A DNA stretch of 64,000 nucleotides from Candidatus Nomurabacteria bacterium (lineage in GTDB: Bacteria > Patescibacteriota > Minisyncoccia > Phycocordibacterales > UBA9973): NCBI GenBank assembly GCA_026396065.1, contig JAPLXO010000008.1, forward strand, positions 1,056-65,055, read 5' to 3'. Numbering within the stretch: position 1 is the stretch's first letter; every line of letters starts with the position of its first letter. Positions 1-5,701 of the stretch are shown here, one piece after another. A program made the position numbers and the translations under genes. The notes below the pieces were generated by a model that worked only from the letters and a program-made list of their open reading frames with translations, ran no database searches and had not been told where the DNA came from.

Positions 1-1300
1 ACAGACAGTCAAAACTTGGCTAACGAGAGACCAGCGTCAAGCGTCCCAACCTTCGGGTGGACGAAGATAGAGTCCTTCTTAGGTATAGAAGAGCGAAATA
101 CCTTGTCGGGTAAGTTCCGACGCGCACGAATGGTGTAATGACTGGAAAACTGTCTCGGAGATCAGCTCGGTGAAAATACAATGCCGGTGAAGATGCCGGC
201 TAAGTGCAGTTAGACGAAAAGACCCTAGAAGCTTTACTATAGCTTGATATTGAGCATGTTTTTTTATTGCGTAGAATATACGGGAGGATTTGAAGCAGCG
301 ATTTCGGTTTCTGTGGATCCGACAGTGCAATACCGTACTCTAAAAGGGCATGTTCTAACCAAAACGGCAAAAACGTTTTGAGACAGTATCTGGTGGGTAG
401 TTTTACTGGGGCTGTACCCTCCTAAAAAGTAAAGGAGGGGTTTAAAGGTCAGCTAGGCGCGAATGGAAACCGTGCCGATAGTGTAATGGCACAAGCTGGC
501 TTGACTGTAAGAGGTACATCTCAAGCAGGTGGGAAACCAGAACATAGTGATCCGACCATTCGCAGTCGGCTCACCTTATCCTGGCGGTGGAGAAGCTGCC
601 AAAGGTTTGGCTGTTCGCCAATTAAAAAGGTACGCGAGCTGGGTTCAGACCGTACAGAACCTCACCCGACCTCTCCGAATTTCGGAGAGGAGAAGTGAAT
701 TTTGTGCAATCTGAATCCTCAGAGGTAAATTTTTGTTTATGAAAAAAAATATTTTCGGGATTTTTTAAAATCCCAAAGTAAAGATAGAATCAATCACATC
801 ACGGCGGTCACGCGAAATTAATTCGAGTGATTAAAGTTGACTTATATCGGTGAAGTCCACCATTTGTCTTAATTGGCAAGCGACGGATAATACCGAGGGA
901 ACCCAAACGTAAAGTTTTGGACCCGTAGAGACTAATCGTCAACAGTTCTAACACATATCAGCTTCCGTTAGAATGAAGTTATAGTCCAATGCAACAAGTA
1001 ATTGTTGGTATCATGCGTGAGACAGGTTGGTCTCCTATCTACTGCACTCGTTGATTCTTGAGAAGATTTGTTCCTAGTACGAGAGGACCGGAATGAACTA
1101 ACCTCTGGTGTACGAGCTGTCCTGCCAAGGGCACTGCTCGGTAGCTATGTTGGGAATGGATAACCTCTGAAAGCATCTAAGAGGGAAGCCAGCTTCAAGA
1201 TTAGGAATCGTTAAGAACCCTGAGAGATGATCAGGTTGATAGGCTTTAAGTGTAAGCGCAGCAATGCGTTCAGCTGAGAAGTACTAATGTTTCGATTCCT
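1..1300 (+). rRNA. rrl: 23S rRNA, 3' portion (domains IV-VI equivalent), carrying internal insertion; 3' end near 1300
   Basis: Blocks collinear with E. coli 23S ~1900-2904: gtaagttccgac..cacgaatgg, gacgaaaagaccc..ctttactatagcttga, tctggtgggtagttt, gtaatggca..gcttgactg, catagtgatccg, ggtacgcgagctgggtt, gtgagacag, cctagtacgagaggaccgga, gaaagcatctaag, gtactaatg. Six-frame ORFs inside it are spurious. Confidence 0.85.
650..1012 (+). other. ~360-nt insertion inside 23S rRNA between the GGGTTYAGA and CGTGAGACAG blocks (E. coli ~2585-2593); putative ORF-less intron or intervening sequence
   Basis: Conserved 23S sequence stops after gctgggttcaga (649) and resumes at atgcgtgagacaggttggtctcctatc (~1013). 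Intervening sequence is AT-rich, unrelated to 23S, and holds local hairpins (cctctccgaatttcggagagg). Confidence 0.5.
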
Positions 1301-1613
1301 GTTAAGAAATTTGGAAATCACACTTCGATTTATTTCGAAGAAATTAAAAAAACAAAAACAAAAAATTTGAAATTCGAAAAGTGGAAAATAACAATTGTTG
1401 TTTTTTACAATTCATCCAAGGGGGATGAAGAATAATCAAGAAAGAATTAAAAAACTTTTGCAAGAACAACCTAACCCAAATCTACCCACTTGCTCTAGTA
1501 AATATTCTATTCTTTTGTATTATTTCTAACCCCTTACATTCGGAACGGTAAAAGAGTTAATCTACTTTCTTTACCTTCCACTTTCCGGATTTCAAATTGT
1601 TTCGAACCTTTTG

Positions 1614-1721
<108 letters not shown>

Positions 1722-1756
1722 CAAAATGTTTGAACATAAATATCCTTACTCACAAG

Positions 1757-1818
1757 CTGGAGTAGGCAGTCGCTAGGCGATTAGTAAATCGTACCGCGAG
1801 GAACAAAATGTTTGAAAG
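1757..1818 (+). repeat. partial direct duplicate of the 5S rRNA 3' tail
   Basis: agtaggcagtcgctagg plus acaaaatgtttgaa repeat the 5S 3' end and its immediate downstream 14 nt (1704-1737). Confidence 0.5.
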
Positions 1819-1831
1819 TCTCAATAAATAA

Positions 1832-1858
1832 AACCTAATTTATCAATCAGGTTTTTTG
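1832..1858 (+). terminator. rho-independent terminator of the rRNA operon
   Basis: aacctaatttatcaatcaggtt hairpin followed by a T-run. Confidence 0.5.
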
Positions 1859-1873
1859 TGCTAAAATTATTCA

Positions 1874-2281
1874 GTGCTTCAAATAAATATTGGAATTAAT
1901 ATAATAATTGTGCGGGATAATAAACTTTTGCTTGGTAAACGCAAGGGTGCTTTTGGTGCTGGGGATTGGGGTTTACCTGGAGGGCATTTAGAACAAAATG
2001 AAAAATTGCAAGATGCAGCAGCCAGGGAATTATTTGAAGAAACAGGAATGAAGGCGGATAAGTTTATTTTTGAAAATTTAGTAAATCAACCAAGAATAGA
2101 GAATCATTATATGCAAATAGGTTTTATAGCAGAAGGTGTTAAGGGTGAACCGCAACTTCTAGAACCAGATCGTTGTGAAGAGTGGCGTTGGTTTGATTTA
2201 GAAAACTTACCAGAAAATGTCTTTCGTTCACATAGAGATCAAATAAATCTATTCAAGAAAAGAGAAAATTTCACTGAATAG
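1874..2281 (+). CDS. NUDIX hydrolase
   Basis: Nudix box GGHLEQNEKLQDAAARELFEETG (Gx5Ex7REUxEExGU). Confidence 0.8.
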   Translation: MLQINIGINIIIVRDNKLLLGKRKGAFGAGDWGLPGGHLEQNEKLQDAAARELFEETGMKADKFIFENLVNQPRIENHYMQIGFIAEGVKGEPQLLEPDRCEEWRWFDLENLPENVFRSHRDQINLFKKRENFTE

Positions 2282-2335
2282 TATTCACACTATATTAGTC
2301 TTAGTATAAACAGATAAGTTAAAATTTTAGCTTTT

Positions 2336-3136
2336 TTGTGCTACAATAAAAAAATGACTTGGGCATTAAAAAGACAAATCATTTATTTTTTAATATTTAT
2401 ATGTATTATAGGTATCTTTGGTTTCTGGATTTTATATCCACATTTTACACAGGCACCTACATGTAAAGACAATAAACAAAATGGCACCGAGACTGGTGTC
2501 GATTGTGGAGGTTCGTGTATACTCGCATGTCCATTTCAAGTAGATAACGTAGCAGTGCTTTGGGCACGATCTTTCCGTGTAGTTCCTGGCAAATACAATG
2601 CTGTAGCATATTTAGAAAATAAAAATAAAAATAATGCTGTTTATAAATTACATTACAAATTTAGATTTGCAGATAAAGATAATATTTTTATTGGCAATCG
2701 TGAAGGGGATACATATATTCCAACACAAGGTAAATTTGCTATTTTAGAACCTGCTATAGATGTAGGTAATTCAATACCAGTCTTTACTTCTTTTGAATTT
2801 ACCGAGAAACCAATATGGATACAAATTCCAGAAGAAAAAGTAAAGGAACTTCAAATACTTATTGGAGATATTTCTCTTTCAGGAGAAGACACAAATCCAT
2901 CAATGTCTACAACACTTAAAAACAATTCTTTGTTTAAAATTCCATCTGTTAAAGCTGTAGCTATTTTATATGATTCATCTGGTAATGCAGTGAATGCTAG
3001 TAGCACATTTATAGATTCAATAAGTGGTGGTGTCACTGTACCTATAACTTTTACTTGGCCAGAAGCCTTCTCTCAAAAAATAGTAGCAAAAGAGATACTA
3101 CCAATATTCAATATTTTTTCAGTGAAGTTTAATTAA
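2336..3136 (+). CDS. hypothetical membrane-anchored protein (N-terminal TM, Cys-rich extracytoplasmic domain)
   Basis: Long ORF with N-terminal hydrophobic helix and coding-like composition; no recognised motif. Confidence 0.5.
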   Translation: MCYNKKMTWALKRQIIYFLIFICIIGIFGFWILYPHFTQAPTCKDNKQNGTETGVDCGGSCILACPFQVDNVAVLWARSFRVVPGKYNAVAYLENKNKNNAVYKLHYKFRFADKDNIFIGNREGDTYIPTQGKFAILEPAIDVGNSIPVFTSFEFTEKPIWIQIPEEKVKELQILIGDISLSGEDTNPSMSTTLKNNSLFKIPSVKAVAILYDSSGNAVNASSTFIDSISGGVTVPITFTWPEAFSQKIVAKEILPIFNIFSVKFN

Positions 3137-3137
3137 T

Positions 3138-4271
3138 ATGGTTCGAGCTTTTTTTCTTAAAAAAATAGATTGGTTGCTCGTAGCTTTTGTTTTACCAATA
3201 ACACTTGCCGGGCTTTTCACTATGAAGTCTTTTGTACCATCTGAGAGTGAGGGTAATTTTTTTGGAAAACAAATAATTTGGCTAATAATTGCTCTTGCTA
3301 TTTTTTTTATATTTTCCTTTGTTGATTTCAGATTTTTAAAACGTACGAATATACTAGTATATCTTTTTTTGTTTTTTTCTGGAATTCTTTTACTTCTTTT
3401 TATTTTAGGTCATGTATCGAATGGAGCAAAGAGCTGGTTTTCTCTTGGTGGCTTCTCTTTTCAACCATCAGACATGATGAAGCTTGTAGTTGTTTTAATT
3501 TTAGCTAAATATTTTTCTCGTCGTCATGTTGAAATAGCAAATATTAGACATATATTTATTTCAGCTCTTTATGCTCTAGTACCATTCCTTTTGGTTTTTT
3601 TTCAGCCAGATTTCGGTTCAGCTATCATTATATTTTTTATATGGCTAGGTATGACTTTAGTTTCTGGAATTTCTAAAAAACATCTTTTGATGGTATTTAT
3701 TGGTGGAGTTGTTGCACTCGGAATATTATGGCTTTTTGTTTTTGCTCCATATCAGAAAGCTCGTATTGTAAACTTTATAAATCCAATGACAAATATTCAT
3801 GGTTCAGGATATAATGCTTTGCAGTCTACAATAGCTGTCGGGTCTGGGCAAATTTTTGGTAAAGGTCTTGGTTTTGGAACACAATCTAGACTAAAGTTTT
3901 TACCTGAATATCAGACAGACTTTATTTTTGCTGCTTTTGCGGAAGAGTGGGGTTTTGTTGGATCATTGCTACTGTTACTCTTGTTTGCTCTAGTAATATG
4001 GAGGATTTTGCGGATTGCCTATCATGGTGAATCAAATTTCGAAATGCTTTTTGGTATGGGCATTGCTATTTATTTCATGAGTCATATACTGATAAATGTA
4101 GGAATGAATATTGGTGTAATGCCTGTAACTGGGATTACTCTTCCATTTATGAGTTATGGTGGCTCACATCTTGTGACAGAGTTTGCTGCTCTCGGAATTC
4201 TTATGAGTATGCGTGGATACGGACGCCCAGCACATAGAGATGATATGAAGAATGAATTTTTAGGATTATGA
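3138..4271 (+). CDS. SEDS-family peptidoglycan glycosyltransferase (RodA/FtsW)
   Basis: Multi-TM protein with FtsW/RodA motifs (GSGYNALQSTIAVGSGQIFGKGLG, PEYQTDFIFAAFAEEWGF, LPFMSYGGSHL); ends in TGA. Confidence 0.85.
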   Translation: MVRAFFLKKIDWLLVAFVLPITLAGLFTMKSFVPSESEGNFFGKQIIWLIIALAIFFIFSFVDFRFLKRTNILVYLFLFFSGILLLLFILGHVSNGAKSWFSLGGFSFQPSDMMKLVVVLILAKYFSRRHVEIANIRHIFISALYALVPFLLVFFQPDFGSAIIIFFIWLGMTLVSGISKKHLLMVFIGGVVALGILWLFVFAPYQKARIVNFINPMTNIHGSGYNALQSTIAVGSGQIFGKGLGFGTQSRLKFLPEYQTDFIFAAFAEEWGFVGSLLLLLLFALVIWRILRIAYHGESNFEMLFGMGIAIYFMSHILINVGMNIGVMPVTGITLPFMSYGGSHLVTEFAALGILMSMRGYGRPAHRDDMKNEFLGL

Positions 4272-4309
4272 CCTCACCCCCGACCCCTCTCCTTATGAAG
4301 GAGAGGGTA
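4271..4309 (+). repeat. GC-rich hairpin repeat, copy 1 (cctcaccccNNNcccctctcc..ggagaggg)
   Basis: acctcacccccgacccctctccttatgaaggagaggg; same motif at 43901-43948 and inverted at 44390-44438. Confidence 0.6.
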
Positions 4310-4320
4310 GGAATAAAAAT

Positions 4321-5154
4321 ATGAATATTATAGATGGAAAAAAAATAAGAGATGAAATATTATTCAAGATAAAATCTGAAGTAGAGGTTTTACCATTTCA
4401 GCCAGTTTTTTGTGACGTGTTGGTGGGGGAAGACCCTGTATCAATGCAGTATGTAAAAATGAAAGATAAGACAGCACAGTCTGTAGGTATTAAATTTCAC
4501 AATGCTGTTTTTCCTGCTGATATTTCGACTGAAAATTTAATAAAAGAAATTGAGAGTTTAAATAAGTTACCAAATATGTGTGGAATTATTGTTCAGCTTC
4601 CTTTACCAAAATCTTTTGATACAAAAATTATTTTAAATGCTATTGATCCAAAGCTAGACGTAGATTGTTTAGGAGAAACAACAAGAGAAAATTTTTATAA
4701 TCAAAAGTCTTCTTTGTGTTCTCCGGCAGCTTTGGCTTGTATTACTTTATTGGATTCTTTGAATTTAGATTTAAATAACAAAAAAATAGTTGTCTTAGGA
4801 CAAGGGGAACTCGTAGGTAAACCAGCTTCAGCTTTGTTAAATTTTAGAAATATAAAACATAAAATTCTAACAAGTAAAAGTGAGAATAAAGAACAAATTT
4901 TAAAACAAGCAGATATTATAATTTCTGGTATTGGTAATGGAAAATATATAACGGGTGGTATGATAAAAGAAGGGGTAGTCATAATAGATGCTGGAACGAC
5001 AGAAGAAAATGGCGGAGTGATAGGGGATGTAGACTTTGAGTCCGTAAAAAATATAGCGGGTTTCGTGTCTCCTGTACCGGGTGGCGTAGGCCCTGTGACA
5101 ATATCGATGCTTCTTAATAATGTATTAACTGTAGCTAAATCAAATGTTGAATAA
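4321..5154 (+). CDS. folD: bifunctional methylenetetrahydrofolate dehydrogenase/cyclohydrolase
   Basis: FolD-family motifs: PVFCDVLVGEDPVSMQYVKMK, DVDCLG, SPAALACITLL, VSPVPGGVGPVTISML. Confidence 0.85.
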   Translation: MNIIDGKKIRDEILFKIKSEVEVLPFQPVFCDVLVGEDPVSMQYVKMKDKTAQSVGIKFHNAVFPADISTENLIKEIESLNKLPNMCGIIVQLPLPKSFDTKIILNAIDPKLDVDCLGETTRENFYNQKSSLCSPAALACITLLDSLNLDLNNKKIVVLGQGELVGKPASALLNFRNIKHKILTSKSENKEQILKQADIIISGIGNGKYITGGMIKEGVVIIDAGTTEENGGVIGDVDFESVKNIAGFVSPVPGGVGPVTISMLLNNVLTVAKSNVE

Positions 5155-5701
5155 TCAAATATTTTTCTTTTTTTATAATTTTGCACATCAATCAAATACT
5201 TTTGACAAAGTCGTAGTTTTTTTTGCACAAACTTTTCCATATACAGTAATACTATTAGCTGTTTTGTTTTTGCTTTTTCATCACGACGCTTGGCCTAAAA
5301 AAGATGTTTTTGGAGAATTAAAAAGCTACTTAAGAAAGTGGAAAGAAATTATATTTGTATTTTTAGCTAGTGGTATTGGCTGGGTTTTAGCAGATATTTT
5401 AAAAATGATATTTAAGACACCTCGCCCTTTCAATGCTTTTCAAAATGTTTTCTCATTAATACCTGAAACTGGTTTTGCTTTTCCATCTCAGCATGCCGTC
5501 TTCTTTTCAGCACTCGCAGTTTCACTTTTCTTTTGTCATAAAAAAGTCGGTTATTGGTTTATCTTTTTTGCCCTCATAATCGGCATCACTCGCATTGTGG
5601 CCGGTGTTCATTTTCCTATAGATATTCTAGGGGGATTTATACTTGGAGCGCTTACAGCGATAGTGGTTAGAAAGTTTGCATTTTTTAGGAAAAATGTATA
5701 G
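5144..5701 (+). CDS. PAP2-family phosphatase (undecaprenyl-diphosphatase-like); true start probably an internal Met
   Basis: PAP2 motifs PSQHA and GVHFPIDILGG; multi-TM. Confidence 0.7.
   Translation: MLNNQIFFFFYNFAHQSNTFDKVVVFFAQTFPYTVILLAVLFLLFHHDAWPKKDVFGELKSYLRKWKEIIFVFLASGIGWVLADILKMIFKTPRPFNAFQNVFSLIPETGFAFPSQHAVFFSALAVSLFFCHKKVGYWFIFFALIIGITRIVAGVHFPIDILGGFILGALTAIVVRKFAFFRKNV

Follow-up and report, generated by a model that had tools for sequence, protein, structure and literature searches.

A contig-specific 99-nt gap in the peptidyl transferase region of a Candidatus Nomurabacteria 23S rRNA gene with an ordinary L2593 group I intron: a probable assembly artefact

Introduction

Naturally fragmented rRNAs, such as bacterial 23S rRNAs with RNase III-cleaved IVS and the scrambled or fragmented rRNAs of organelles, still encode every core segment. 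Interruptions by introns form a second described class. Position 2593 (E. coli numbering) is among the frequent insertion sites in the 23S genes of CPR bacteria, in which 222 ORF-less group I introns have been described, ORF-less versions being common in CPR (Tsurumaki et al. 2024, PMC11270868). Cr.LSU-type group I introns also lie at L2593, the homing site of I-CreI, I-MsoI, and I-CvuI. Apparent anomalies may also arise during assembly. Local errors are frequent in MAG scaffolds; a single 1.13-Mb CPR genome contained 13 of them (Chen et al. 2020, PMC7111523).

Here we describe a 23S gene at the start of a 64,000-nt stretch of contig JAPLXO010000008.1 (the window) that lacks 99 nt of its peptidyl transferase center (PTC) and carries an intron at L2593. 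If uncorrected, a defective deposited 23S gene of this kind could be misread as an exotic ribosome or skew analyses built on rRNA.

Results and Discussion

Layout of the 23S rRNA locus

The window derives from a MAG of Candidatus Nomurabacteria bacterium (Parcubacteria/Patescibacteria group, CPR), with NCBI proteins MCX6757712-715 as neighbors. Alignment to the Rfam LSU model RF02541 placed the 3' part of a bacterial 23S gene at window positions 1-1308, with 630.9 bits over model positions 1905-2925 and extending to the 3' end of the gene. For comparison, metagenome contigs were scanned with the motif TGGGAAACCAGNNCNTAGTGATCC, which lies just upstream of the gap described below and is neutral to deletion status. 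Of the 120 contigs retrieved, five, all from other metagenomes, are close relatives of the window 23S. Their flank identities to the window are 98.6% (L112), 94.7% (L120), 93.6% (L109), 92.6% (L101), and 91.9% (L042). The features of the locus are as follows.

1-91, plus strand: 3' end of a first group I intron (BLAST alignments of the relatives begin at window position 92; LSU-model posterior probability is low over 1-91)
92-564, plus strand: 23S rRNA exon, E. coli ~1932-2406, holding the intact H74 5' strand (223-233) and the H88 5' strand (555-564, accattcgca) (LSU model and BLAST against relatives)
564-565, plus strand: deletion junction, blunt and without microhomology, where the 99 nt TTAGATGCGGTGGAAGCTCAACGGATAAAAGCTACTCTAGGGATAACAGGCTAGTTCCGCCCAAGAGTTCATATCGACGGCGGAGTTCGGCACCTCGAT, present in all close relatives, are absent (alignment to L112, L120, L109, and L101; same continuation in L042)
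565-653, plus strand: 23S rRNA exon, E. coli G2505-U2593, comprising H90, H91, the A-loop H92, and the H93 5' strand (local LSU match of 84.6 bits; 92-94% identity to relatives)
654-1015, plus strand: ORF-less group I intron at site L2593 (RF00028, 50.0 bits; helices compared with L112, L109, and L101)
1016-1308, plus strand: last 23S rRNA exon, with the sarcin-ricin loop AGTACGAGAGGACC, running from E. coli C2594 to the end of the gene (sequence and LSU model)
1615-1721, plus strand: 5S rRNA, following 23S in the operon (RF00001, 66.9 bits)

Two group I introns split the 23S gene: a complete one at L2593 and one at L1931 that enters the window with its last 91 nt. The spacer between 23S and 5S (1309-1614) is unusually long at 306 nt, AT-rich, and without a called feature.

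Extent of the missing segment

The conserved block catagtgatccg ends at position 554 and is followed by 11 nt (555-565) and then by tcggctcacc. The LSU alignment is normal up to UAGUGAU (window ~551) and restarts at GUCGGCUC (566), leaving model positions ~2420-2525 essentially without a match. The unmatched elements are part of H88 (its 3' half), the H74 3' strand, the central loop GGGAUAACAG, H89, and the A2497-U2504 strand. The positions that make up a complete PTC (the H74 3' strand, the central loop at G2447-C2452 and A2497-U2504, and H89) are absent from the model alignment. Measured against the relatives, the gap is exactly 99 nt and falls between positions 564 and 565, with CCATTCGCA before and GTCGGCTC after the junction. 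By our own count along the E. coli sequence, this corresponds to E. coli ~2407-2504. Strings diagnostic for the absent segment are CATTCGCATTAGATGCGG, CCTCGATGTCGGCTCACCTTATCCTGG, and GGGATAACAGG, with CCTCGATGTCGGCTCACCTTATCCTGG joining the segment to the window-specific H91 variant.

A pattern search of the 64 kb with GGGATAACAGGCTGAT gave no match at ≤3 mismatches, and a permissive cmscan of the same 64 kb revealed no second LSU fragment. The initial annotation had reported only 11 nt between the two conserved blocks and the absence of the PTC motif; the LSU alignment and the pattern search agree on both points, coordinates included. It had also named, as a refutation, a covariance-model alignment placing the PTC segment within 540-1020. 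The alignment contains no such segment there, and the absence stands. As the PTC is required for an active large-subunit rRNA, the deposited gene, as written, cannot encode one.

The short sequence accattcgcag at the gap was considered as a mutated A2497-U2506 strand. This assignment was rejected, since the sequence is that of the H88 5' strand and is identical in L112 and L120. By alignment, accattcgca thus reads as the H88 5' strand and not as a remnant of the central loop.

The L2593 and L1931 introns

The initial annotation had placed a ~360-nt ORF-less insertion at 650-1012. The insertion is real and contains no ORF of ≥50 aa, while its boundaries are slightly offset from those given: it spans 654-1015 (362 nt), with exon 1 ending at U653 (E. 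coli U2593) and exon 2 restarting at C1016 (CGUGAGACAG). A group I intron model had been suggested as a check, and RF00028 indeed matched the insertion across the full model (positions 1-253; window 752-1008; E 8e-12), with a borderline score of 50.0 bits that lies exactly at the gathering threshold (50).

Features read directly from the sequence agree with this match. P1 is formed by the exon sequence CAGACCGU653 (645-653) and ACAGAA (654-659), which pair with UUUUGUGCAAUCUGA (700-714) and place a U653·G706 pair at the 5' splice site. The 3' end reads AUCAUG1015, giving a terminal G before CGUGAGACAG. The following core helices, all on the plus strand, were assigned manually.

836-841/938-943, plus strand: P3
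847-852/891-896, plus strand: P4
856-858/885-887, plus strand: P5
930-934/982-986, plus strand: P7
946-952/967-973, plus strand: P8
992-996/1003-1007, plus strand: P9

The core order P3-P4-P5-P5'-P4'-P7-P3'-P8-P8'-P7'-P9, with the P3/P7 pseudoknot, is present in the window and in L112, L109, and L101, all three of which carry an insertion at the same site. Across these four manually assigned sequences, both-sided compensatory changes occur in P3, P5, P7, P8, and P9. More distantly related insertions at this site are found in L001 and L051, whose introns encode a single-motif LAGLIDADG protein with I-CreI, I-MsoI, and I-CvuI as its best solved relatives. U2593 is the I-CreI site, and the I-CreI, I-MsoI, and I-CvuI family homes to L2593. 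The window copy shares with the Cr.LSU-type introns and the CPR 2593 insertion class its point of insertion, after U2593 in H93, and has the group I core. It differs in lacking the endonuclease ORF and, outside the Rfam consensus, in a long hairpin extending P1 (661-697) and an inserted P2.1-like hairpin.

The insertion at 654-1015 is therefore a standard ORF-less group I intron of a known kind at a known site. The initial annotation had raised an unusual intron architecture, which does not hold for an ORF-less group I intron at a frequent CPR site (PMC11270868). With the P1 U·G pair at U653, a guanosine-binding P7, and the terminal G1015, the intron would be expected to self-splice by the normal group I pathway, which would restore H93.

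Stretches resembling the missing PTC segment had also been noted within the insertion. These stretches exist, and they are elements of the intron: atcacggcggt is the P2.1 region, and cgacggataataccgaggga forms P5'-P4'-P6. The homologous introns of L112, L109, and L101 conserve both TCACGGCGGTC and GGAyAAyACCGAG, and the genes that host them have an intact PTC segment. A permuted exon, in which the intron would carry the PTC piece, was rejected on these grounds.

The L1931 intron is represented by its tail. Window positions 1-91 are non-rRNA sequence and form the 3' end of a group I intron inserted between E. coli U1931 and A1932, with the exon restarting at A92 (A1932). The tail holds a J8/7-like GAAGATAGAGTCC and ends in G91. 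L120 and L109 have an uninterrupted exon in which CCTAAGGT is joined to AGCGAAAT; in the window, L042, and L101, the sequence before this join is foreign. The L1931 tail of L042 is 91% identical to window 1-91. Together, these sequences add one ORF-less group I intron at L2593 and the tail of a second group I intron at L1931 to a CPR pattern that is already well documented.

State of the gene in close relatives

In contrast to the window, all five close relatives continue through the gap as GATCCGACCAT(T/A/G)(C/T)GCA TTAGA(T/C)GC(G/A)GTGGAAGCTCAACGGATAAA, with the segment in collinear position. Four of them (L112, L120, L109, and L101) reach the far side of the gap and have exactly 99 nt at the position equivalent to 564-565; the L042 contig stops inside the 99-nt segment. 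Judged from these sequences, the gap is not a property of the lineage. With the 99 nt in the normal place in every close relative, an assembly error is its most likely source. It is confined to a single assembly, and near-identical sequences elsewhere are normal.

Protein databases provided a further view of this lineage. A hypothetical "repaired" 103-aa ORF was used as query, sought as the intact allele of this organism. The search returned >100 "proteins" from spurious ORFs in the 23S genes of this lineage in other assemblies, and all 23 that were fetched carry the 33 codons of the segment. By protein search and exact ORF look-ups, the organism's own allele, intact or deleted, was found in no other assembly, the relatives being many and none identical. 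Exact look-up of the junction-spanning ORF products gave no database record.

The collinear relatives bear directly on the proposal, made in the initial annotation, of a fragmented or permuted 23S rRNA, in which the PTC piece, encoded elsewhere or within the intron, would be joined to the rest, or assembled with it, in trans. If true, this would be a split 23S rRNA with its catalytic core as a trans-acting fragment. The absence of the segment and the superficial look-alike stretches in the intron are all that speak for it. Set against these, the 64 kb hold no copy of the segment, the five closest relatives are collinear and intact, so that such an architecture is not common to them, and the look-alikes are conserved intron elements (P2.1 region and P5'-P4'-P6) that stand beside an intact PTC in L112, L109, and L101. 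Comparison with naturally fragmented rRNAs leads the same way. The likeness extends only to a missing or interrupted collinear piece of 23S; in the window the catalytic core is simply absent, and the relatives are unfragmented. We consider a fragmented or permuted 23S extremely improbable. A genuine 99-nt deletion in the dominant genome, with the PTC and H89 supplied from a locus outside the window, seems just as far-fetched.

The initial annotation had also listed a degraded rRNA copy beside an assembly artefact. Apart from the gap, no sign of decay is seen in the window 23S, because the H74 5' strand is intact, the upstream sequence is nearly identical to that of the relatives, and the one clustered downstream change is compensatory. 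Relatives have the same H74 5' strand (223-233), and their 3' strand AGCTACTCTAGGG is its complement. Over the 125 nt preceding the gap, the window differs from the four relatives at only 2 positions, both in the H88 stem. The sole clustered difference downstream is ATCCTGG...AAAGG in the window compared to AGCGCGG...AAGCG in the four relatives. This H91 difference includes a compensatory change from C-G to G-C and reads as ordinary species-level variation. The evidence favors either an artefact or a deletion that inactivated the gene recently.

The same H91 difference could be read as the mark of a chimeric join, a sub-type of assembly artefact in which the two sides of the junction would come from two related organisms in the sample: the downstream variant is set apart from all four relatives, while the upstream side is nearly identical to them. 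Overall identity to the relatives is nevertheless comparable upstream (93-99%) and downstream (92-96%) of the junction, and the change in H91 is cleanly compensatory and brings the window closer to the general bacterial consensus, as a sister species would be expected to do. A chimera of this kind is improbable.

Comparable deletions and the origin of the gap

Similar deletions occur in other assemblies. Species-representative genomes were screened for TAGTGATCCG within 5-35 nt of GTCGGCTCNNCNNATCCTGG, which yielded three unrelated MAGs with ~77-85 nt deletions in the same PTC/H89 region.

WPAF01000020, 6081-6141, minus strand: Saganbacteria MAG (L001), PTC/H89 region deletion; also has the L2593 intron with an I-CreI-like ORF
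JARRJE010000131, 6290-6342, minus strand: Deltaproteobacteria MAG (L002), PTC/H89 region deletion
JAJTCH010000001, 2659-2711, minus strand: Rickettsiaceae MAG (L003), PTC/H89 region deletion

The gene of the Rickettsiaceae MAG is an otherwise full-scoring 23S (2423 bits). Among contigs retrieved regardless of deletions, roughly 2 of the ~105 that cover the region have internal deletions of essential domain V sequence, both being JGI/ENA contigs. L087 (JAEAMG010003159.1) is missing 54 nt of domain V, including GGGAUAACAG and most of H89, and L032 (Ga0316576_10023786) is missing 30 nt in H90/H91. The five deletion-bearing contigs come from differing lineages and differing studies, and none of these 23S genes can be functional as written. 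Because such domain V deletions recur in public MAGs and metagenome contigs, screens for unusual CPR rRNA architecture should first check close relatives and reads.

In principle, these five contigs could be real variants, and the window deletion is present in the deposited sequence. A deletion that is real in the DNA would make this a dead 23S allele, produced either by a recent inactivating deletion in a second copy or as a minor or non-viable variant followed by the assembler. This reading conflicts with the intact state of all relatives and with a remaining gene that has not decayed. Moreover, 23S is usually single-copy in CPR genomes (Tsurumaki et al. 2024, PMC11270868), such that a real PTC deletion would be lethal. 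We regard a real deletion as unlikely, though less so than a chimera.

An independent Logan assembly of run SRR20698644 contains window 1642-5545 at 100% identity on a 3.9-kb contig. The break of this contig inside the 5S gene suggests that co-occurring relatives tangle the assembly graph around the rRNA operon. Exact look-up of ORF products found this contig alone and no independent assembly across the junction or upstream of the window. A literature search found no mention of run SRR20698644.

Taken as a whole, the locus combines a contig-specific 99-nt deletion, probably of assembly-level origin, with an ordinary L2593 intron. The most likely cause would be a local misassembly where the rRNA operon is most conserved and the graph tangled, and the real gene would almost certainly carry the same 99 nt as its relatives. 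Comparison of sequences establishes the deletion, its exact extent, the intact relatives, and the identity and structure of the intron, and it points to the assembly, instead of the cell, as the probable source of the deletion. The case would resemble the local MAG errors described by Chen et al. (2020, PMC7111523) in being a short internal error within an otherwise correct scaffold, in a region common to co-occurring relatives, and from a MAG source. That study treats errors generally and not deletions of this type. Two features count against any precise assembler mechanism: the join is blunt, and the edges of the deletion do not coincide with those of the stretch that the relatives share identically.

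Deletion size was also considered in light of commonly used assembler k-mers. The sizes of 99, 77, 54, and 30 nt equal k or k-1, a post hoc correspondence that the two 85-nt cases do not fit and that is at most a weak hint.

Additional features of the operon and its relatives

Directly downstream of the 5S gene, its 3' end is partly duplicated (window 1700-1815), with AGTAGGCAGTCGC(C/T)AGG and ACAAAATGTTTGAA each present twice, ~65-85 nt apart. The duplication is also found in the independent Logan contig L004 and is absent from relatives L112 and L109.

Several relatives hold further insertions in 23S. L112 has an extra ~800-nt insertion (924-1724) in the sarcin-ricin region near E. coli A2657, another frequent CPR insertion site; the window is uninterrupted at the equivalent position, between 1079 and 1080. 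Translations of two spurious ORFs from relatives' 23S genes (P0110 and P0119) diverge directly after GCACCTCG(ATGTCGGCT), and therefore some relatives may hold insertions at ~2500-2511, adjoining the 3' edge of the window deletion. L042 carries an extra ~700-nt insertion (~449-1154) after E. coli U1951 (site L1951; equivalent to window 112), directly downstream of its L1931 intron. The L1931 and L1951 insertions leave a 20-nt mini-exon between them, a layout that resembles the Coxiella arrangement.
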